Part shown: positions 2,104 to 49,351 of the stretch, in pieces
Position numbering within the stretch: position 1 is the first letter of the stretch
How the letters are laid out: each line of letters begins with the position of its first letter
Assembly: GCA_034437535.1 (NCBI GenBank)
Contig: DAOTTZ010000029.1
Span: 6,367-70,366 of the forward strand
From: Anaerolineae bacterium
GTDB lineage: Bacteria; Chloroflexota; Anaerolineae; Aggregatilineales; Phototrophicaceae
Reading direction: 5' to 3'
Length of the DNA: 64,000 nt
The notes under the pieces: generated by a model
The model's input: only the letters and a program-made list of their open reading frames with translations
What the model was told of the DNA's origin: nothing
The model's database searches: none
Made by a program: the position numbers and the translations under genes

Positions 2104-3292
2104 TGTGCTTGCCAGCCTGAACGAAGCCTTCTTGAATCAGATCCTGGCGGGGTACATCGACCAATTCAGCGGCTCACGGGTCATCCGCACTGCTTCGGTG
2201 ATGATCACTTACACCGCGTTAGATAATCCGGTCTTCACGCTACCCCACAGCGGGGATAGCGGCTTTATCATCCAGGTGCCCACGCTGGATATTCGGCTTT
2301 ATCGTTACCGGGATGGCGAACGCGGGCCGGAACTGGGCGGGAGTCAGTTTGAATTGACCGTGCGCGGTAATTTCCGGCTACAGCCCCCACGTAATAGCGA
2401 CCCTGGCGGAAGCATCCAGATCCACATTGACGACTGTGAGGTCAACGGCGGCAACCCGATTGGGCGGGCCATCGTGAGTCTGTATATCAACAACACCGTG
2501 ATCCCGGCGTTAAAGGCCCGCCTGCCCGCCGTTAAAATCCCCAACCTGCGGCAGTTGCTCGGCTTCCCGGTGACGGTAGACCGCGTGCATACCGCCAACC
2601 GGCAACTTTATCTGCTGATGACCGTGCCCGATGCCCCACACCCGGCCACGCCACCGCCCGTCATCACCCAGACTGACGAACCAAGTGTGTTCATCTGCGC
2701 GACAGATGCCGCCATCACCGCATCCCAGGCCAGCTTTAAGGTCAAGCGCGGGGTAGACGAAGACACCGATTTCCCCCTGCCGATGGGCGTCAAGTTGGGA
2801 TTGGCATCCTTGCATCTGGTGGGGTACGTCCAGGCAGACGACCTGAACGTTCGCATCCACAGCGGCGAACCATCCTGTGGGGTCAACCTGACGGCCAGTG
2901 CCGGCCTCAAAGTCGGGATGAAGCCCCTCGGCCAGTACGATCTCGGACTTAAACCACGCATCACACCGCCCCGCTTTAGCCTGGATCTCAAATCAAACGA
3001 CGAACGAATCTATGCCGTCATCCAGATGGAGTCGAGTCCGCTGGTGAATTGGGAGATTCCCGGCATCCCGCGTGTCATTCAACCGGCCCTGCGTGATCTG
3101 CTCGGCTGGGTTGATTCGTCGATGAGCATGGTATACGACACGCTGGATGCTGGCCTACGAGTCATTCGTATTCCGATTGTCTCATTCGCGGATTGGTCGT
3201 ATCTTATGCATGTGGAACAGGTGCGCTTTGAAGGCAACAGCGTGCTGGTGCATCTGGTGGCCGATCAACGTGAGGAGGAGGTACCATCATAA
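2096..3292 (+). CDS. hypothetical protein (398 aa), operonic with the two receivers
   Basis: ATG 2096 overlaps the upstream receiver gene by 8 nt. Long ORF with coding-like composition. No motif I can recognise. Confidence 0.55.
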   Translation: MSNVLASLNEAFLNQILAGYIDQFSGSRVIRTASVMITYTALDNPVFTLPHSGDSGFIIQVPTLDIRLYRYRDGERGPELGGSQFELTVRGNFRLQPPRNSDPGGSIQIHIDDCEVNGGNPIGRAIVSLYINNTVIPALKARLPAVKIPNLRQLLGFPVTVDRVHTANRQLYLLMTVPDAPHPATPPPVITQTDEPSVFICATDAAITASQASFKVKRGVDEDTDFPLPMGVKLGLASLHLVGYVQADDLNVRIHSGEPSCGVNLTASAGLKVGMKPLGQYDLGLKPRITPPRFSLDLKSNDERIYAVIQMESSPLVNWEIPGIPRVIQPALRDLLGWVDSSMSMVYDTLDAGLRVIRIPIVSFADWSYLMHVEQVRFEGNSVLVHLVADQREEEVPS

Positions 3293-3369
3293 GCGGTCAA
3301 ACCGTTCGCATCCCGCAGAGCTTCCCGGCGGGCACCGTCGTCGCGGTCGCCGTCAGTGAAGCGGATTAC

Positions 3370-3945
3370 ATGGCAACCTATGCCGAGACCTTTCATGAGT
3401 GGATTGATGGAGTCGTGGTCAAGATGTCACCTGTCACGTTGCGTCATGCGCAAATCGTAGATTATCTGCGCCACCTGCTCCAGACCTATTGTTCGCTCCG
3501 TCCGGTGGCACAGGTGCTCAGTGAGCCATTTGTCATGCGGCTTGATCTGGGTGACCGCATCAGCCGCCGAGAGCCAGATCTACAGGTGATCTTAAACGCC
3601 AACCGTGCGCGAGTTCAAGCCACGTACACCGATGGCCCGGCAGATATTTGCATCGAGGTAGTCTCCCCTGGCAGTGTGGCGATTGACTACGGCGAAAAGC
3701 TAGTCGAGTACGAAGCGGGTGGCGTACAAGAATACTGGATCATCGACCCGGAACGGCAATTGTGCCACTTTTACCGCCGTCAGGGAGATTATTACCAACC
3801 GATCCCGCGTACTGATGCCCACACGACCCCGCTTTTGCCCGCATTTCGGCTGGATATTGCGACCCTGTGGGCGGATGATCTACCAGATATTCTGGATGTG
3901 GTCGAAATAGTGAAGGTCATGCTGGCGGAGGATGAAACCAGATGA
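3370..3945 (+). CDS. Uma2-family (DUF820) putative restriction-endonuclease-like protein
   Basis: HEWIDGVVVKMSPVTLRHAQIVDYL, PDLQV, EVVSPGS, EYEAGGVQEYWIIDPE. This is the typical PD-(D/E)xK-like Uma2 signature. Confidence 0.7.
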   Translation: MATYAETFHEWIDGVVVKMSPVTLRHAQIVDYLRHLLQTYCSLRPVAQVLSEPFVMRLDLGDRISRREPDLQVILNANRARVQATYTDGPADICIEVVSPGSVAIDYGEKLVEYEAGGVQEYWIIDPERQLCHFYRRQGDYYQPIPRTDAHTTPLLPAFRLDIATLWADDLPDILDVVEIVKVMLAEDETR

Positions 3946-31156: not shown

Positions 31157-31714
31157 ATGGAGTTGTTCTTTCTTATTACATTCGGAATCGGCGCGGTTTA
31201 CCTCCTGCTGATGATTTTCGGCGGGGTTGGGGAGGCGTTAGACTTCGACCTGGCCGGGTTGTTCGGCGGTGCGGCGGAAAGCCTGGACGGTGGGCTGGAC
31301 CTGGACGGCGGCAACGAGGGCCTGGGTTGTAACGTCATCGCTGGCTTCCTCACCGCGTTCGGTGCGATTGGCCTGGCAGGCACCGTTGCAGATCTCAATA
31401 TCTATTTGGTGTTGGCGTTGGCCGTGATCTTCGGTTATGCCGTCGGTCGGTTGATCTCACGCTTTATACATTTCGTCTATACACAACAGAGCGATACCGT
31501 CGCCTCCCAGGATACGCTAATCGGTAAGCTAGCACGAGTCACCATCAGCGTGCCGGCTGGTAAGGTCGGGGAAGCCATCGTGGAAGATGGCCCGGTCACC
31601 AAATACCCGATCCGTGAGGTGAACGAGACCCCGCTAAAACGCGGCGACATGGTGATGATCGTGTCGATGGACGGTACGACGCTCAATGTGAAGAAAAAAC
31701 GTGCGGAAGACTAA
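31157..31714 (+). CDS. NfeD-like membrane protein (OB-fold C-terminus), flotillin partner
   Basis: AAGGAGG SD. N-terminal TM helices, Gly/Asp-rich linker, C-terminal beta-barrel-like LIGKLARVTISVPAGKVGEAIV...GDMVMIVSMDGTTLNV. Directly upstream of flotillin. Confidence 0.7.
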   Translation: MELFFLITFGIGAVYLLLMIFGGVGEALDFDLAGLFGGAAESLDGGLDLDGGNEGLGCNVIAGFLTAFGAIGLAGTVADLNIYLVLALAVIFGYAVGRLISRFIHFVYTQQSDTVASQDTLIGKLARVTISVPAGKVGEAIVEDGPVTKYPIREVNETPLKRGDMVMIVSMDGTTLNVKKKRAED

Positions 31715-31730
31715 ATAAGGGGATATTTTG

Positions 31731-33209
31731 ATGGATAGTAGTTTGATTTTGATCGGAGCCGCTGGCTTAATTGTCATCGCGCTCGTCGTCTGGCTGATCC
31801 GCTATTATCACCGTGTCCCGCCCAGTGAGGTCATGGTGGTCTATGGGCGCAAAGCCCCCCGGTTGATTACTAACGGCGGCGTGTTCGTCATCCCGATCCT
31901 GGAAGAATACAAAAAGCTCGACCTGACCGTTATCACCATCAAGATGGAAAAAGATGAGGTCTACACAGTCAGCGGTGTACCCATCATGCTGGATTGGGTG
32001 GCGCAGGTGCAGATCGGCAGTACCAACGAAGCCATGCAGACGGCGGCCCGCGCCTTTTTGGATAAAGCGCGTACTGAGATCACCAGCATCCTGCTGGATA
32101 CCCTCAGCGCGAACTTCCGCGCCATTGTCGGCCAGATGAGCGTTGAGGCCATACACCGCGACCGGGACGACTTCGCCCACCGGGTACAGGAACTCGCCAG
32201 CGATGATATGTCCGCAATGGGTGTGAACATCGTGAGCATGGGTATCGAAGAAATTGTCGATAATCAGGGCTACTTAGAGGCGATGGCCGCGCCACAAATC
32301 GCCGCCGTCAAGCGGGATGCTACAGTAGCCGAGGCCGAAGCCGAGCGCGAAGCACGCATCCGGGCGGCGGCGGCTACCCGCGAGGCCGAGCAAGCCGAAC
32401 TCGACGCGCAACGTGAGACCCTGGCCCAGAGCGAAGCCCTGCAATTGCGCGAAGTCGAGGTACAACGCCGGGTAGACATCGAACGCGCTGAATCCGACCA
32501 GGAAGTACAACAAAAACGCGCCCTGGCCGTCGAGCAACAGCAAGAAGCCGATATTCTGGTGCCAGCGCGGGCCGAACGTGAAGCGACCGAAATCCGGGCG
32601 GAAGCCTCCCGCCGCAAGATGACAATCGAAGCGGAAGCCGACGCTACCGCCGTCCGCGAACGCGCCGAAGCCGACGCCGCCGCCACCGAACAACGCGGTC
32701 GGGCAGATGCCGCCGCCCTGCAAGCCAGAGAACTGGCCCAGGCCGAGGGTGAAAAAGCCAAGCTCCTGGCGGAAGCAGAAGGCCGCCGCGAACTGGCCGC
32801 CGCCACCGCCGCCGAAGACGCGATCAACCTGCGCCAGTTCATCATCGAACAGGTCACCCATGCCGAGATCGAGAAAGTACGCGCCATCAGCGATGCGATG
32901 GCCGGATTGGGTGGTAATGTGCGCGTGGTGCAATTAGGCGGCAATGGTGACGGCTCTACCAACACCTTTATGGATTTCCTGATGGGCATCCCAGAAGTGG
33001 CCGAAGTCTTGCGGACGAAGGTAGAAGCCCTGAGTGGCGAAGACTTCGATAAGACCATCCACCGTGTGATGAGCATGTTCACCAGCCTGCGTACCATCGA
33101 TGACAGCGTACCCGTCAACGGATCACCACTCCCGATGGATTACGGGACGAACGCCCCCGGCAATGGCAAAGGTGATACCCCCCCGGACGACCAACCGGCG
33201 GACGAATAA
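31731..33209 (+). CDS. flotillin (SPFH/band-7 family)
   Basis: ATG 31731 with AAGGGGA SD. N-terminal TM, SPFH domain, long Ala/Glu/Arg-rich coiled-coil. The antisense ORFs in the track here are spurious. Confidence 0.85.
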   Translation: MDSSLILIGAAGLIVIALVVWLIRYYHRVPPSEVMVVYGRKAPRLITNGGVFVIPILEEYKKLDLTVITIKMEKDEVYTVSGVPIMLDWVAQVQIGSTNEAMQTAARAFLDKARTEITSILLDTLSANFRAIVGQMSVEAIHRDRDDFAHRVQELASDDMSAMGVNIVSMGIEEIVDNQGYLEAMAAPQIAAVKRDATVAEAEAEREARIRAAAATREAEQAELDAQRETLAQSEALQLREVEVQRRVDIERAESDQEVQQKRALAVEQQQEADILVPARAEREATEIRAEASRRKMTIEAEADATAVRERAEADAAATEQRGRADAAALQARELAQAEGEKAKLLAEAEGRRELAAATAAEDAINLRQFIIEQVTHAEIEKVRAISDAMAGLGGNVRVVQLGGNGDGSTNTFMDFLMGIPEVAEVLRTKVEALSGEDFDKTIHRVMSMFTSLRTIDDSVPVNGSPLPMDYGTNAPGNGKGDTPPDDQPADE

Positions 33210-42442: not shown

Positions 42443-44320
42443 CTATTCTCCCGCCACATCCACCCGGAGCGTGTAATCAACCGGCACCGTCGTCACCGGC
42501 GCGAAGGGTGACACCACCAACACCGCACGATCTGTCCCCTCTTTAAGCGGCAAACTCCAGCCTTGTGCGGGTGCCTGCCAGCGCGTAACAGACTGTACGA
42601 TCCCCTGGTTGAGTTCGATCACCTGCACCCAGGCCCTCTGCGGCAGGATGTTGTCGATCAACAGCCAGCCTTCCGCCTGCCAACCGCCGCCGTCTGCTTC
42701 CAGATCGCTAAAGTACCCAATCTCCGGGATAGCGATGTCGTCAAGGGCGATGCCGTGTTCGGTCACTGCGTCATCGGTGATGTACTCAAAGCGGAGCAAG
42801 ACCTCATGCCCGGTGAAGCCATCCAGCCGGATAGATTGGTCGATCCAGCCGTCGCTATATCCGCTGTAACCAGCCCCATACGCATTGCCGAATGGATTTT
42901 CGGTGGTCATATCCGGTGTTTCCAGCAGGGTCCAGGTCGCGCCGTCATCAATGCTGGCACTGACGTAAGCGTAATCCCATAGTTCTTCGATGGCATACCA
43001 CGTCTTGAACGTCAACGTCGCAGAATCCACGTCGCGCAGGTCAAAGGAACGGGTTAACCGGGTGTTGCTGGTATCGGCCCGGTTGCTATACCACAACCGC
43101 TGACCGCTGGCCGCCGTCGTCGGAATCAAGCCGACGGTTTCCGGCGCATCCAGCATCACATCGAGCTTATCCCCATCCTGCAAACCGTCGATCTCGTAAT
43201 AGGCCGCGCTGTACTGGTTGGCTGTAACCTCCCAGGTGTAAGGCACAGGGCTACCCACCCGCTGGATGGTCGGGCGGCTCACTGGCAGGTCATCGGGGTA
43301 ACTGTACCGTCCATCTTCGAAGGTCTCATCCTGTATGTAGGTTGCCAGCACCCAATCCGCGAAAAAATCGGGGGCGTCGGTCGCCGGGTCGAGCGTTTCC
43401 AGTGCGGCCTGAACTGCCAGCAAGCCGTTATCGGTCTGCCCGCTCAGTTCACGGATGCCGTCTTCGCCGTAACGATGATAAAAATACGTCACGAACATAA
43501 AGCCAGCCCCATAATTTGCGCCGCGATAATCGTTAGAGAGGCCGAACGTGTTCAGTTGCACCTCCGGGCTGAACGTGTACATGCTGGTATAGCGGAATGA
43601 ATCCTGATAACCCAGGTAATATTCGGTGAAGGTAGAAAAGCCTTCGTTTAACCAGGTATCCTCGTTGGTATCCAGGTTATGCCGGATCATATGCTGGAAC
43701 TCGTGCGCCAATGTGCTGGCGATGCTCCCGGCGGTGATGCTGGGGTACGCGCTCAGGTTGACAAAGAACATCTCACGCTGGTTGCTCGGCGTGACGACGG
43801 CATCCGGGTAAGTGTGCCGCTGGGCGAAATACGCCCCCACGCCGGCCCCCAGATTATAAGCGAAAAGCACATGCAAGCGCGAATCACCATCTACACCGGG
43901 CGTCGCTTCCGGCCCCCATAAGGCCCGCACCGGCTCGTAGATCACCTCGTCGAAGGTCTGCGCGACGGCCTGCGCCTGCTGGTCACTGACGGGTGCGCCC
44001 TGCTCCACCCAAATGTAAACATGCTCACCAATCGCCCGCAGATCCGATTCCACCGGGAACGTCTCAAACGTGAAGGCGTTCGACGCCCATAACGCCTCAC
44101 GGTCACCGACAGCGTATTGCGGCGGCGTCACCGAGAGCCAATCTCCCATCGCTACACCGCGAAAACGACTCGCCAGGTCAACCGGGTCATTCAGCGGGAT
44201 GTCGGTCGTGGTCAGGTCGCGGTACGTCGGGAAGTCCAGCGGATCAGTCTCGGTCTCCTGCGCCTGCACGGTCAACACACCAAGCAGCATCGTGATCGTC
44301 ATCAATAACCAGAATTTCAT
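42443..44320 (-). CDS. secreted zinc metalloprotease (HEXXH...E gluzincin-type; M6/M30-like, family uncertain)
   Basis: Signal peptide MKFWLLMTITMLLGVLTVQAQ. HEFQHMIRH...NEGFSTF. Large C-terminal beta-rich region. ATG 44320 with AAGGA SD. Confidence 0.65.
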   Translation of the reverse strand: MKFWLLMTITMLLGVLTVQAQETETDPLDFPTYRDLTTTDIPLNDPVDLASRFRGVAMGDWLSVTPPQYAVGDREALWASNAFTFETFPVESDLRAIGEHVYIWVEQGAPVSDQQAQAVAQTFDEVIYEPVRALWGPEATPGVDGDSRLHVLFAYNLGAGVGAYFAQRHTYPDAVVTPSNQREMFFVNLSAYPSITAGSIASTLAHEFQHMIRHNLDTNEDTWLNEGFSTFTEYYLGYQDSFRYTSMYTFSPEVQLNTFGLSNDYRGANYGAGFMFVTYFYHRYGEDGIRELSGQTDNGLLAVQAALETLDPATDAPDFFADWVLATYIQDETFEDGRYSYPDDLPVSRPTIQRVGSPVPYTWEVTANQYSAAYYEIDGLQDGDKLDVMLDAPETVGLIPTTAASGQRLWYSNRADTSNTRLTRSFDLRDVDSATLTFKTWYAIEELWDYAYVSASIDDGATWTLLETPDMTTENPFGNAYGAGYSGYSDGWIDQSIRLDGFTGHEVLLRFEYITDDAVTEHGIALDDIAIPEIGYFSDLEADGGGWQAEGWLLIDNILPQRAWVQVIELNQGIVQSVTRWQAPAQGWSLPLKEGTDRAVLVVSPFAPVTTVPVDYTLRVDVAGE

Positions 44321-44353
44321 CACATTTGTCCTTCGGGTTAGGCGTTCAGTTGG

Positions 44354-45319
44354 TTATACATCGGCGGTAACGGTCAGTTGCGCGGTCGGCCCGCCGTGAT
44401 CTTGTATGATGTAACCGACCAGTTCCGGGGCCAGGATGCGCCCGGTCAACGTCCAGATCGTGCCGTCATGCACTTCGTCTTCCACCACGCCGCCACGCTC
44501 GGCAAAATCCGCCTGGACTGCCGCCTGACGCTCTAGCGGGCACCGCACCTGCACACGTACCGTCGGCGTCACCACGCGCAGGTTATCATGCAGGACGTTG
44601 TTCAGCGCGTACTCGGTAGCCGATGTGACCGCCTCGACCGTCGCCAGCGTCGGGCCGAATAACGCCTCGGTCGGGTCGCCTTCGCCACCGGCAAACGTCT
44701 TATCAATGGTGCCGAAGATCCAATCAAAAAAGCGGAAAAACGGGTTGGCGGTCGCCTCCGGCTGAGATTTCGCGGTGCCACTCCCCAGGTTACGGTTGAG
44801 CGTCGCCTCGATCAAAGTGATCTTGACATCCCCCAGCGGATGATCCTGGGTGGCGGCCACCACCCCCGCCCGCTGGAAGGCCGCCCGGAGCAGAGCATCC
44901 GGCAGGGGTTGGGCCAGTTGATTCTCAAACAGGATGCCGCCCTGGGCCTCAGTATGGGTGATTCGGATCAAGACCTGGGCGGTGGTGCCGTTCTCGGTGG
45001 TGTAATCTGCCCGGCGTTCAGCATCATGGATGAGCTGTGACCGCTGGCCCAGCCCGCCACTGATGGCTGACCAGGGTTCGAGCGTGCAATCAGTCTCACC
45101 CAGCAGGGCGCGGACGGTATCGATGGCTTCATCATCTGGCATGGTGAGGATCTGGCCGAGTGGTTGCAAGATCTGGACATCCAGGTCAGGCAAATTCTGG
45201 ATGATCTCACGCAGGGCGTCCTGGCAGGGGCTACCGGCGGCATTATCCGCCCGCAGGTCGAACCAATCCGCCACATTAACCAGGCGCAGGTGGGGCGGAA
45301 TATATAATCGGTCGGTCAT
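44354..45319 (-). CDS. EF-G domain IV/V-like protein lacking a GTPase domain
   Basis: PLGDVKITLIEATL...VTPTVRVQVRCPLERQAAVQADFAERGGVVEDEV...TIWTLTGRILAPELVGYIIQDHGGPTAQLTV follows the EF-G domain IV / EFG_C pattern ([26 protein letters not shown]...AEVPLAEMFGYATDLRS). No P-loop or G-domain motifs. ATGA-coupled to the upstream NfeD-like gene. Confidence 0.55.
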   Translation of the reverse strand: MTDRLYIPPHLRLVNVADWFDLRADNAAGSPCQDALREIIQNLPDLDVQILQPLGQILTMPDDEAIDTVRALLGETDCTLEPWSAISGGLGQRSQLIHDAERRADYTTENGTTAQVLIRITHTEAQGGILFENQLAQPLPDALLRAAFQRAGVVAATQDHPLGDVKITLIEATLNRNLGSGTAKSQPEATANPFFRFFDWIFGTIDKTFAGGEGDPTEALFGPTLATVEAVTSATEYALNNVLHDNLRVVTPTVRVQVRCPLERQAAVQADFAERGGVVEDEVHDGTIWTLTGRILAPELVGYIIQDHGGPTAQLTVTADV

Positions 45320-45816
45320 ATGTTAAGTTGTCCTTCCTCTCCGGCAGGCGTGACGATCCAATAGGCATCGTCTTCACCAGTCATTACGACTGGCGTCCCG
45401 ACGGTTAACGTCTCATCATCGGTCATCACCGCGTAGACCTTATCCCCAAAGCGGGCTTCGCCGGGGTCACCGGGGGTGATGTCGGTCAGCATCTCGCCGA
45501 CGGTCTGCTGATGCAGGTCGTGCAGACGGCGGCGCACATCGGCGTTCAACGTACCGAACGTCGTCCGTGTGAACAAAATTGTCACGAAAGCCGTCGTCAA
45601 CAGACTATACGGAGCCTCCCAGCCGAGTGCGACCGTAATCAACCCGGCCCCGCCGAACGACGACAGGGCCGACGCCAGCAACATCCGGTTGAGCAAGGCC
45701 CGCCGCTGGTCGGCCTGCCACTCATGCACATATGGGAACCCACGAACCGCTAAGATTACCAGCGATGCGCCACCACTCAACACGGCTACTGCATACAATC
45801 CATTTAACCAGGTCAT
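45316..45816 (-). CDS. NfeD-like membrane protein (short form: TM helices plus C-terminal OB-fold)
   Basis: ATG 45816 (track TTG 45843). Three TM helices, then ...GEARFGDKVYAVMTDDETLTVGTPVVMTGEDDAYWIVTP, typical of the NfeD C-terminal beta-barrel. Confidence 0.55.
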   Translation of the reverse strand: MTWLNGLYAVAVLSGGASLVILAVRGFPYVHEWQADQRRALLNRMLLASALSSFGGAGLITVALGWEAPYSLLTTAFVTILFTRTTFGTLNADVRRRLHDLHQQTVGEMLTDITPGDPGEARFGDKVYAVMTDDETLTVGTPVVMTGEDDAYWIVTPAGEEGQLNI

Positions 45817-45861
45817 TGGCCCTAATCGTCTGTGTTCACACAATCACCCTGGATTATACTC

Positions 45862-45907: not shown

Positions 45908-45983
45908 GTACCTGTAGCTCAGTGGATAGAGCGTTGGTCTACGGAACCAAAAGTCGTAGGTTCGAATCCTACCAGGTACGCCA
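45908..45983 (+). tRNA. tRNA-Arg (anticodon ACG), CCA encoded
   Basis: Manual cloverleaf: acceptor GTACCTG / CAGGTAC, D-arm GCTC-AGTGGATA-GAGC, anticodon stem TTGGT / ACCAA with loop CTACGGA (anticodon ACG), 5-nt variable loop, T-arm GTAGG-TTCGAAT-CCTAC, discriminator G, CCA. Confidence 0.9.
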
Positions 45984-45987
45984 TAAA

Positions 45988-46019
45988 CAGCCAGCCTCCC
46001 CCGCTGGCTGTTTTGTTTT
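45988..46019 (+). terminator. rho-independent terminator after tRNA-Arg
   Basis: CAGCCAGC-(7 nt)-GCTGGCTG followed by TTTTGTTTT. Confidence 0.8.
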
Positions 46020-46089: not shown

Positions 46090-48081
46090 GTGAGGATGTC
46101 TTCATTTATGGAACCTGATATACAACGCTTACAATACTTAGAGTTACTGGCCGCCCAATATCCATCGCTACGGGCCGTCACAACCGAGATCACCAACCTG
46201 ACCGCCCGCCTGAACCTGCCCAAAGGCACCGAGCATTACGTCTCCGATATTCACGGCGAATACGAAGCCTTCCGCCATATCATGCGGAACGGCTCCGGGT
46301 CGATCAAGCGAAAGATCGACGAAAACTTCGAGATCTTATCTGACGAAGAAAAGCGCGGCCTGGCAACCCTGATCTATTATCCTGAACAGCGGATGTCGTT
46401 GGTGATGTCTGAGGTCGAAAACCCGGACGCCTGGTGCCGGATGATGATCTTGCGCTTAATCAAATTGGTGCGGGCTTTTGCCTCCAAGTACACCCGGCAG
46501 GATGTCGTGCGTTTCATCCCGGATGATTATCAATCCATGTTCATCCACCTGATCTACAGCCAATCCGATATTCCCGCGCAGAAGGATTATTACCAGAGCA
46601 TCATCGAGACGATCATCGAGACGGATAGTGCCCGCGATGTCATCCAGGCCTTCTGTGAGTTGATCCAGCGGTTGGCAGTGTCGCATCTGCATGTCATCGG
46701 GGATATTTACGACCGAGGCCCCGGCGCAGAGCATGTGATGGATCTCATCATGGACTTCCACAACGTCGATATTCAGTGGGGCAACCATGACATTTTGTGG
46801 ATGGGGGCGGCGGGTGGCAGTCAGGCTTGCATCGCCAATGTGATTCGCATCAGCCTGCGCTATGCCAATACCGACACGCTCGAAACCGGCTACGGCATCA
46901 GCCTATTGCCGCTGGCGTCCTTCGCGATGGACGTTTACGGCGATGACCCGTGCGAACAATTCCGGCCCAAGCTCAACGATAAGCTGGAATTGGAATTCAC
47001 CGAACATGAGGTCGGTCTGTTCGCCCGGATGCAAAAGGCGATCACCATCATCCAGATGAAGGTCGAAGCGCAGATCATCATGCGGCGGCCACATTACCAC
47101 ATGGAAGACCGGCTCTTGCTGGATAAGATCGACTACGACGCCGGCACCATCACGCTGAATGGCAAAACCTACCCGCTGATCGACTCGCACTTGCCGACGA
47201 TTGACCCGGAAGACCCCTACCGGCTGACCGATGCCGAAGCCGCCGTCGTTGAGAAGTTCGTCCAGTCCTTTGCCAATAGCCAGCGACTCCAGAAGCATGT
47301 GCGCTTTCTTTATGCCAAAGGCAGTATGTACCGCGTGTACAACGGCAACCTGCTTTATCATGGGTGCATCGTGATGAACGAAGACGGCAGTTTCCACGAG
47401 TTCGAAGTCGAAGACGGATCGTACTCTGCCAAAGCCTTTATGGATCGTGTGGATCGGCTGACCCGGCAGGGATACTTCAGCACCGATGACCCGGCGCGGA
47501 AGCAATACGGCCTGGATGCGACGTGGTATCTATGGAGCGGCGCACATTCGCCGTTGTTTGGCAAAGACAAAATGGCGACCTTCGAACGGTATTTCATCGC
47601 CGAAAAAGAAACCCACCAGGAGACGCGCAACCCCTATTATGAGTTCCGTGACCGCGAAGACATCGCACTCAAGATTCTGCGCGAATTCGGCGCGGATGAA
47701 GAAAACGGCCACATCATCAACGGGCATGTGCCGGTCAAGGTCAAGCAGGGGGAGAGTCCGGTCAAGGCGAACGGCAAATTGCTGGTGATCGACGGTGGCT
47801 TGGCGGAAGCCTATCAAGCGGTGACCGGGATCGCCGGTTATACGCTGATCTTCAACTCTTACGGGTTGTTGCTGGCCTCTCACCATCCCTTCCAAACGAC
47901 ACAATACGCCATCGAAAACGGCTACGATCACTTTTCCGAGACCCGCATCCTGGAGACCAACCGGGGCCGGTTGCGCATCCGTACCACTGATGAAGGCCAG
48001 GCCATCCAGGATCGCGTGCAGGATTTGCGCGATTTACTCCAGGCTTACCGCGCCGGGTTAATTAAAGTGCGTGACCGTTGA
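46090..48081 (+). CDS. fbp: fructose-1,6-bisphosphatase class 3
   Basis: Collinear with Bacillus class-3 FBPase: NLPKGTEHYVSDIHGEYEAF, HLHVIGDIYDRGP, VDIQWGNHDILWMGAAGGS, TFERYFIAEKETHQETRNPYY, NGHVPV...KANGKLLVIDGG. Start is GTG 46090, ATG 46096 or ATG 46108. Confidence 0.85.
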   Translation: MRMSSFMEPDIQRLQYLELLAAQYPSLRAVTTEITNLTARLNLPKGTEHYVSDIHGEYEAFRHIMRNGSGSIKRKIDENFEILSDEEKRGLATLIYYPEQRMSLVMSEVENPDAWCRMMILRLIKLVRAFASKYTRQDVVRFIPDDYQSMFIHLIYSQSDIPAQKDYYQSIIETIIETDSARDVIQAFCELIQRLAVSHLHVIGDIYDRGPGAEHVMDLIMDFHNVDIQWGNHDILWMGAAGGSQACIANVIRISLRYANTDTLETGYGISLLPLASFAMDVYGDDPCEQFRPKLNDKLELEFTEHEVGLFARMQKAITIIQMKVEAQIIMRRPHYHMEDRLLLDKIDYDAGTITLNGKTYPLIDSHLPTIDPEDPYRLTDAEAAVVEKFVQSFANSQRLQKHVRFLYAKGSMYRVYNGNLLYHGCIVMNEDGSFHEFEVEDGSYSAKAFMDRVDRLTRQGYFSTDDPARKQYGLDATWYLWSGAHSPLFGKDKMATFERYFIAEKETHQETRNPYYEFRDREDIALKILREFGADEENGHIINGHVPVKVKQGESPVKANGKLLVIDGGLAEAYQAVTGIAGYTLIFNSYGLLLASHHPFQTTQYAIENGYDHFSETRILETNRGRLRIRTTDEGQAIQDRVQDLRDLLQAYRAGLIKVRDR

Positions 48082-48403: not shown

Positions 48404-49351
48404 ATGTTCAAGGACATTCAAGAAGTCAGCGCGGCCCTGAGCAAACAGCAATACATCTCAACCGATGAAATCTCAACCGTGAGCTTCCTGGCGAACCAGT
48501 TAGGCAAGCCCCTGCTGGCCGAAGGCCCGGCAGGAGTCGGCAAGACTGAACTGGCGAAAGCCTGGGCCGGGGCAACCGGCAAGCGTTTGATCCGCCTGCA
48601 ATGCTATGAAGGATTGGATGAAAACAAAGCCCTTTACGAATGGGAATATGCCAAGCAGATGCTCTACACGCAACTCCTGCGTGATAAACTGAGCGAAATC
48701 CTGTCCTCTGCGGATACCCTGACCGACGCGGCAGACCGGCTGGCCCAAGAAGAAGACGTGTTCTTCAGCGAACGCTTCTTGCTGGCACGTCCCCTGCTGG
48801 AAGCCATCACAGCCGATGAGCCGGTGGTCTTGCTCATCGACGAGATCGACCGGGCCGATGCCGAGTTTGAGGCATTCCTGCTGGAAATCTTGAGCGACTT
48901 CCAGGTGTCGATCCCGGAAGTCGGCACAATAATGGCCCGCCACAAGCCCGATGTCCTGCTGACCAGCAACAACACCCGTGAGCTTTCCGAAGCTCTCAAG
49001 CGGCGGTGTCTGTATCTGTTTGTCGATTATCCCGCCCACGATTCCGAACTCAACATCGTGCGGATGCGTGTGCCTGAATTGCGGGAAAAGCTGGCGGAAC
49101 AAGCGGTTGAAGTCGTGCAAAATCTGCGGCGGCTAGATCTGAAAAAGAACCCCAGTGTCTCGGAGACCATCGACTGGGCCAAAGCCCTGGTGATGCTCAA
49201 CGCTGACACGCTGGATAAGAAGACGCTGGAAACAACCCTGACGGTCTTGCTCAAGCACGAAAGCGATGTGCAAAAGGCCCGGCGTGCCCTGGTGGATGGT
49301 GGCCCGCCGGTTGACCGCCGACCGGGGCGGGGTCGCTCCGACTGGAATTAA
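48404..49351 (+). CDS. MoxR/CbbQ-NorQ-type AAA+ ATPase (AAA_5)
   Basis: Walker A GPAGVGKT, Walker B VLLIDEIDRA, RLQCYEGLDENKALYEWEY resembling the CbbQ/MoxR post-Walker-A segment. No VWA-domain partner gene adjacent. Confidence 0.75.
   Translation: MFKDIQEVSAALSKQQYISTDEISTVSFLANQLGKPLLAEGPAGVGKTELAKAWAGATGKRLIRLQCYEGLDENKALYEWEYAKQMLYTQLLRDKLSEILSSADTLTDAADRLAQEEDVFFSERFLLARPLLEAITADEPVVLLIDEIDRADAEFEAFLLEILSDFQVSIPEVGTIMARHKPDVLLTSNNTRELSEALKRRCLYLFVDYPAHDSELNIVRMRVPELREKLAEQAVEVVQNLRRLDLKKNPSVSETIDWAKALVMLNADTLDKKTLETTLTVLLKHESDVQKARRALVDGGPPVDRRPGRGRSDWN

Follow-up and report, generated by a model that had tools for sequence, protein, structure and literature searches.

A GTPase-less homologue of EF-G domains III-V encoded in overlap with a small three-helix membrane protein in an Anaerolineae genome

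In a stretch of 64,000 nucleotides (nt) from an Anaerolineae bacterium (assembly GCA_034437535.1, contig DAOTTZ010000029.1, positions 6,367 to 70,366 of the forward strand; hereafter the window, to whose first letter coordinates refer unless another locus is named), two overlapping genes on the minus strand encode a small membrane protein, A, and a soluble protein, B, which corresponds to the rear half of the translation factor EF-G without its GTPase. Gene A (45316..45816) specifies a membrane protein of 166 amino acids (aa), as delimited by the listing of open reading frames (ORFs), gene calls and homologue alignment. The longest frame listed runs over 45316-45843 and opens at a TTG at 45843; the ATG at 45816 is the start according to the gene callers, whose calls were taken from contigs of the metagenome-assembled genome (MAG) GCA_964430415.1 (microbial-mat metagenomes, PRJEB25599), and according to the alignment with five homologues, all of which begin M-x-L-L-x-x-I-Y, in agreement with ATG 45816. 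Gene B (44354..45319) encodes an acidic soluble protein of 321 aa. The original prediction, made from the DNA letters of the window, had described a short NfeD-like gene whose stop overlaps the start of a 321-aa soluble ORF, and both coordinates and sequence bear this out: the TGA of A (45318-45316) and the ATG of B (45319-45317) share the tetranucleotide ATGA (45316..45319), an arrangement indicative of translational coupling, with a purine-rich stretch, GGAGAGGAAGGA, 11 nt 5' of the ATG of gene B. All features of A and B given below lie on the minus strand.

Relatives of B are few. An exhaustive phmmer search among 1.84 billion cluster representatives yielded four, P0003 to P0006 (expectation value, E, 7e-50 to 2e-6), the family amounting to five clusters there. 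P0007 came from a profile search, which recovered P0006 as well, and a scan of genomes contributed L011, a locus in an Anaerolineaceae MAG. A k-mer-indexed homologue search with B returned nothing beyond the gene itself, and scans of metagenome contigs with A- and B-family patterns returned nothing. Among the ~15 billion proteins covered there are 13 sequences in seven 90% clusters, every one of them unnamed or annotated as "hypothetical protein", and we found no family name, no dedicated Pfam model and no literature for them. The B-type ORFs are intact, 310-344 aa long and distributed over five divergent lineages (20-40% identity), each starting at the position that corresponds to the boundary between EF-G domains II and III.

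The kinship of B with EF-G becomes apparent at the level of this family. Searched with the single sequence of B, the PDB returned noise alone and NCBIfam chance-level matches alone, and the Pfam EFG_C match on B itself (residues 252-303, E 0.01) is weak. A profile of the six family members matched almost exclusively EF-G chains in the PDB (E 2e-4 to 2e-3), with the S. aureus EF-G domain III-V fragment, 2mzw, at the top; profile positions 24-173 correspond to residues ~420-568 of T. thermophilus EF-G (domains III and IV), and a weaker stretch, positions 229-278, corresponds to EF-G 582-631 (the end of IV and the start of V). Pfam EFG_C is matched by three of the six members (best E 1.4e-8) and EFG_IV by one of the six (E 1.1e-4); P0003 carries an EFG_C match as a precomputed annotation. 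These are the two domains that had been anticipated from a search with hidden Markov models, and the SPFH domain that would have spoken for a different protein, Band_7 (PF01145), is matched nowhere in B at E <= 1. An AlphaFold2 (AF2) model calculated from the six-sequence alignment, with a predicted local distance difference test score (pLDDT) of 76.4 and a predicted template modelling score (pTM) of 0.68, leads to the same family: EF-G, EF-G2 and mtEF-G account for every one of its top 50 Foldseek matches in the PDB. The lowest E is 5e-16, and the alignments, of ~330 columns, take in the entire protein, at a sequence identity to EF-G of 13-16%. A viral structure library gave nothing meaningful.

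The three C-terminal domains of EF-G occur in B in their original order. Residues 1-88 (45056..45319) are domain III-like, with profile positions 24-88 aligned to T. thermophilus EF-G ~420-482 and the beta-alpha-beta elements of the domain present in the AF2 model. Residues 89-176 (44792..45055) form a domain IV-like core, aligned to EF-G 483-568, in which the FEN motif and PLGDVKITL are kept and the tip loop I, GGRGQYG, is missing. Residues 247-321 (44357..44581) are domain V-like, according to Pfam EFG_C and the AF2 model, which shows a ferredoxin-like module of beta-alpha-beta-beta-alpha-beta topology. The EF-G pattern of the original prediction therefore held as regards the motifs quoted, which do fall in EF-G-like regions, but it had been confined to the C-terminal ~150 aa, whereas the homology spans domains III, IV and V. 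Its claim that GTPase motifs are lacking is upheld: the alignment begins at domain III, a regular-expression search finds neither P-loop nor NKxD in B, with an isolated DHGG at residue 307 fitting the loose D..G pattern, and neither GTP_EFTU nor the domain II model GTP_EFTU_D2 has a Pfam match in B or the family members. As the alignment to domain III takes in the very first residues of B, a domain II could not be accommodated, and this start at the first domain III strand, together with the absence of P-loop and NKxD, identifies B as an EF-G III-IV-V homologue cut at the II/III boundary. We consider this structural identity to be nearly certain. B is thus a derivative of the translational GTPase family and not a member of it, as G domain, domain II and decoding loops are all missing.

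The tip of domain IV is where the family has acquired sequence of its own. The region of tip loop I (GGRGQYG) is three residues shorter in the B family and unconserved. At EF-G 569-581, the tip loop with His573, a residue which we take to mark the tip of EF-G domain IV, B carries a family-specific insertion (residues 177-224; 44648..44791), such that 13 EF-G residues face 56 profile positions (174-229) and the insertion amounts to ~45 residues; the H573A structure of EF-G, 1fnm, is among the PDB matches to both the B profile and the B model. AF2 assigns the insertion low confidence (pLDDT 37-54) apart from a helix at 193-210. In the family alignments, this is the location of an amphipathic helix, NPFFRFFDWIFGTIDKTFAGGEG (residues 192-214; 44678..44746), with F195, F198, D199, F202, D206, F209, A210, G212 and G214 invariant. 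In none of the six proteins does another 18-mer reach the hydrophobic moment of this one (0.55-0.72), and the helix is also their most conserved segment, with a mean pairwise identity of 57% compared to 27-32% in the EF-G-like domains. Its phenylalanines at i, i+3, i+7 and i+14 form a stripe with two invariant aspartates on its flanks, and in overall character it would seem to resemble a protein-docking helix more than a lipid-binding one. In P0003, an additional Pro/Gln-rich linker precedes the helix. A second motif, HDGTxWT, lies in a hairpin at residues 284-290 (44450..44470) and is invariant in all six family members; it belongs to the domain V-like module, has no EF-G counterpart and constitutes a family-specific site far from the tip helix.

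Protein A has three hydrophobic segments by hydropathy, at residues ~5-24, 45-64 and 71-87, and in this respect has the membrane anchor expected of an NfeD-type protein. Hydropathy and homologue alignment together define a conserved module of three transmembrane (TM) segments at residues 1-100 (45517..45816), whose invariant residues include R38, L42-N43-R44-M45-L46-L47-A48, S71-L72, L81-F82 and R84. Basic residues cluster in two places, the loop that follows helix 1 (RRALLNR) and the stretch behind helix 3 (TR...RRR), and from the positive-inside rule an N-out/C-in topology is predicted. The module is followed by a segment resembling the oligonucleotide/oligosaccharide-binding (OB) domain of NfeD proteins (residues 106-157; 45346..45501), which matches Pfam PF01957 below threshold over model positions 5-57 of 57 and with 21.5-24.0 bits (E 2.6e-4 for the whole of A; E 4.5e-5 and 24.0 bits for the isolated C-terminal segment). 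The window's bona fide NfeD scores about as high (22.7 bits), and shuffled A sequences gave Pfam matches in 0 of 9 cases. We regard the OB assignment of the C-terminus, made from sequence, as probable, short of proof. A search of the PDB with the single sequence of A returned noise alone, and a k-mer search with A gave one further match, the 98%-identical variant P0002. An origin of A as a recent duplicate of the local nfeD was considered and rejected, as BLASTP similarity to the window's NfeD is nil.

The pairing of the two genes is conserved. An A-type three-helix gene lies directly 5' of the B homologue at L005/L006, L007, L009, L010 and L011, corresponding to four of the five other lineages, with the 4-nt overlap kept in L009, L010 and L011 and a 6-nt gap in L005 and L007. 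The genes are thus neighbours in other genomes, a point on which the original prediction had made its proposal depend. The five A homologues have tblastn matches of E 1e-13 to 1e-25, are 103-106 aa long and 41-51% identical to the three-helix module of A, and share the invariant LNRMLLA, SL and LF.R motifs. All five end just past helix 3 and so have no OB segment, nor was anything OB-like found elsewhere in their loci. The NfeD-like domain of A is for this reason considered an addition specific to the present genome, and the conserved unit is a three-TM protein with a GTPase-less EF-G III-V, rather than the module of NfeD and EF-G that had been proposed. The short A homologues are basic (isoelectric point, pI, 9-10), with R38, R44 and R84 invariant, and the B proteins are acidic (pI 4.5-5.6), with D199 and D206 invariant. 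Downstream of B, two of the lineages (L005/L006, L007 and L010) carry, 55-73 nt 3' on the same strand, a gene for a two-module membrane protein, DUF4231 plus SLATT_1 (L005 9007-10110; L007 2424-3524; L010 1556-2305); in L011 the third gene encodes a GH13 enzyme. At L008, a 389-aa protein without Pfam match follows the B homologue (2256-3425), which by eye has a receiver-like N-terminus and an acidic low-complexity C-terminus. The neighbourhoods of L005, L009 and L011 are syntenic. The A-B pair is closely preceded by two Fic-domain genes in tandem (each of 128-130 aa; L005 5400-6372, L011 5393-6168), which are accompanied in L005 by a 66-aa gene and adjoin a YkuD L,D-transpeptidase.

Since NfeD proteins usually partner SPFH proteins, a connection of A to flotillin comes into view. 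NfeD genes typically co-evolve with the SPFH genes that share their operon (PMC2636767), and in S. aureus the coiled coil of flotillin is bound by the OB-like domain of NfeD, with a stabilising effect on the flotillin oligomers (PMC11222466). The canonical NfeD-flotillin pair seen earlier in the window (31157-33209) is genuine: the product of 31728-33209 is a Band_7 protein (E 7e-27) and 31157-31714 matches Pfam NfeD (E 1.1e-4, 22.7 bits). This flotillin, whose gene lies ~12 kb from the A-B pair, already has its own NfeD, and the gene downstream of A is B, without Band_7 match, instead of an SPFH neighbour. A second observation comes from L008, the locus of P0003, which at 40% identity is the closest relative of B: positions 1-957 encode a flotillin orthologue, 66% identical to the flotillin of the window, and the B homologue follows 127 nt 3'. 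The contig ends inside the flotillin gene, with the region upstream of it outside view. The NfeD-like domain of A and the flotillin adjacency at L008 are two independent and individually weak pointers, which together hint at flotillin.

These observations can be combined in a reading that we prefer, while holding it tentatively and as falling somewhat short of probable: at the membrane, B is docked to A via its tip helix, with the EF-G scaffold serving as adaptor or regulator and, in this organism, with a connection to flotillin. B would have derived from the C-terminal half of EF-G through loss of the GTPase motor and domain II, and its decoding-centre tip would have been rebuilt by shortening of loop I and by exchange of the His573 loop for a flexible insertion with a Phe/Asp helix. 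The coupled genes would supply A and B in a 1:1 ratio, the tip helix would dock on the arginine-rich cytoplasmic face of A, whose loop and juxtamembrane tail are its conserved parts, and hold B at the membrane, and the EF-G scaffold would have been withdrawn from GTP-driven translocation to serve anew, as an adaptor or regulatory subunit associated with the membrane. The NfeD-type OB domain of A might then plug the A-B complex into flotillin assemblies. The charge complementarity between acidic B proteins and basic short A homologues was counted in favour of A-B docking.

A number of points weigh against this reading. Concerning the NfeD-like nature of A, the three TM segments and a non-random NfeD match stand, but the score lies under the 29.1-bit gathering cut-off, BLASTP finds no similarity of A to either the YuaF OB domain or the window's NfeD, and a single-sequence AF2 model of A (pLDDT 42) does not model the OB fold. 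Concerning flotillin, its adjacency to a B gene is a single case, and the two genes at L008 are separated by a spacer (958-1083) which holds a GACGCCCGAT...ATCGGGCGTC hairpin. Concerning the pairing, no A-type gene adjoins the B homologue of L008 within the 10 kb that could be surveyed, so that B can occur without A as a neighbour, and the variation of the third gene among DUF4231+SLATT_1, GH13, metalloprotease and the 389-aa protein is unexplained by the reading. As for the docking, six sequences of the B family are too few for covariation, and, given the low model confidence in the insertion, the tip helix could instead pack back on B, or bind lipid or another partner.

As an alternative, one could imagine that B is still a ribosome-directed factor, under control of the membrane: it might serve as a tether between ribosomes and the membrane or flotillin domains, or be sequestered by A and released under stress, to occupy the factor-binding site and the A site and halt translation in the manner of a hibernation or toxin factor. 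We consider this unlikely, if well worth weighing. The whole III-V body of EF-G is kept as one unit with a defined interdomain arrangement in the model (pTM 0.68), B retains the domain III and V surfaces that bind the ribosomal factor site, and it is acidic, as EF-G is. Membrane-anchored ribosome binders exist, such as E. coli YqjD, and Borowski, Rodnina and Wintermeyer are said to have found, in PNAS in 1996, that truncated EF-G without the G domain was still partially active on ribosomes. The SLATT pore-type gene after B in two lineages would also suit a stress- or death-linked switch. The tip elements that reach the decoding centre have, however, been lost, with the GGRGQYG loop gone and the His573 loop replaced, and with a tip helix bound to a membrane protein, domain IV could not, on steric grounds, enter the A site in the canonical way. 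The C-terminal stretch of domain V, which in EF-G is of the type PL.E..GY / LRS.T.GR, is unconserved in the B family alignment, the identity to EF-G is merely 13-16%, and the neighbourhoods examined contain no ribosome-related genes.

Alternatively, A and B could form a conflict or abortive-infection module together with a SLATT effector, in which B senses an invader that targets translation or acts as an EF-G decoy; the copy in the window would then have lost or exchanged its effector. SLATT proteins are predicted pore-forming effectors of conflict systems (PMC7159879), and the DUF4231+SLATT_1 gene stands 3' of B in L005/L006, L007 and L010. The tandem Fic genes near the pair in L005 and L011 and the extremely patchy and rare distribution of B fit such a scenario as well. 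So does the form of the short A homologues, in that class I holins typically show the same size, a three-TM N-out/C-in topology and a charged tail. We nevertheless judge it rather doubtful. SLATT is missing from the window, L008 and L011, and L005, L009 and L011 lie in syntenic housekeeping surroundings (YkuD, ThrRS) with no obvious defence island and no nucleotide-signal-generating enzyme nearby. PADLOC had no defence-relevant match for A, B or the downstream protease, nor for the A, B and SLATT proteins of the relatives, and PHROGs gave no phage or functional assignment for the components.

One could also conceive of a membrane-gated ribosome ligand, in which B is parked through its tip helix on the three-TM partner and, in this organism, within flotillin scaffolds, and is freed by membrane damage or by opening of the neighbouring SLATT pore to take up the ribosomal factor-binding site and stop or relocalise translation, a reading that we regard as improbable. 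A module defined by NfeD, with the OB barrel binding EF-G-like domains in place of an SPFH partner, seems to us very improbable: the short-NfeD architecture of A, its Pfam NfeD match, the coupling to B and the fact that B is not an SPFH protein all agree with it, but as none of the five other B-paired A homologues has the OB segment, and none was found elsewhere in their loci, the conserved pairing cannot rest on an interface between OB and EF-G domains. That B might be a decaying remnant, the degraded 3' fragment of a duplicated fusA, is barely credible, its rarity and 13-16% identity to EF-G notwithstanding, as it is intact in five divergent lineages with a common start boundary, bears a new motif conserved above the inherited domains, has kept its coupling to A and gives a confident AF2 model; on this conservation pattern, the pseudogene reading was rejected.

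The surroundings of the pair in the window can be described briefly. Upstream, the A-B unit is bounded by a tRNA-Arg(ACG) gene on the opposite strand (45908-45983, plus strand), the sole match of an Rfam scan, from which it diverges with ~90 nt between the tRNA 5' end and the start codon of gene A; directly after the tRNA lies a terminator-like hairpin with an 11-bp stem (45985-46013). These are followed on the plus strand by a class 3 (Firmicute-type) fructose-1,6-bisphosphatase (46090-48081, E 3.5e-284) and a MoxR-like AAA+ ATPase (48404-49351), beside which no adjoining vWA-type partner gene was seen. On the other side, a gene for a secreted InhA-like/MAM HExxH metalloprotease (42443-44323, minus strand; InhA-like MAM domain E 1.4e-30, MXAN_6640-type E 1e-17) begins 30 nt past the stop of B. 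A scan for promoters and terminators stayed at background level and showed no terminator-like site in the spacer between them, and the protease may be co-transcribed with A and B; it is not kept beside the B homologues at other loci.

What makes the pair of interest is that, as far as could be found, domains III-V of EF-G come joined to a GTPase in every other case and function on the ribosome, and that they occur here without the motor. B has gained a conserved helix exactly where EF-G contacts the decoding centre, and the overlapping genes tie it to a tiny membrane protein, within a narrow distribution comprising a few genomes of uncultured, Anaerolineae-type bacteria. Should A and B form a complex at the membrane, they would be a clear case of reuse of a core translation-factor scaffold; should B still bind ribosomes, it would open a new route from translation to the membrane or flotillin microdomains; and a membrane-gated ribosome ligand, if real, would be a translation regulator of a new class, coupling the integrity of the membrane to the ribosome.

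Several known systems offer themselves for comparison. In the literature, we found no G-domain-less EF-G paralogue paired with a membrane protein, NfeD or SLATT. With EF-G and EF-G2 (T. thermophilus 2bv3; EF-G-2 2dy1/1wdt; S. aureus 2mzw), B has in common the order and folds of domains III-IV-V over its whole 321 aa, and it retains the motifs FEN, P-L-x-D-V-K-I-T-L and EP...V.V..P.E....V..D...RGG. Unlike EF-G, it has no G domain or domain II, its tip loops are altered, its domain V contains HDGTxWT, and it is encoded with a three-TM protein, whereas EF-G belongs to the str operon. The ribosomal protection proteins Tet(M)/Tet(O) and the EF-G paralogues BipA and LepA work on the ribosome as GTPases and have all kept the domain responsible, while B has none, and in place of their rRNA- or drug-contacting loops the tip of B bears a hydrophobic helix. 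Protein A is similar to the short NfeDs of the YuaF/NfeD2 and YbbJ type (PF01957) in its multi-helix anchor, its C-terminal NfeD-matching segment of ~55 residues and its size, but the gene that follows it is not SPFH and the homologues of its membrane part are without an OB domain. SLATT/DUF4231 conflict effectors are encoded by the third gene in two of the related lineages and by none in the window, and no known SLATT system with an EF-G-like protein was found in the literature. Set beside all of these, the A-B pair is a new architecture and a new genomic context for EF-G domains.

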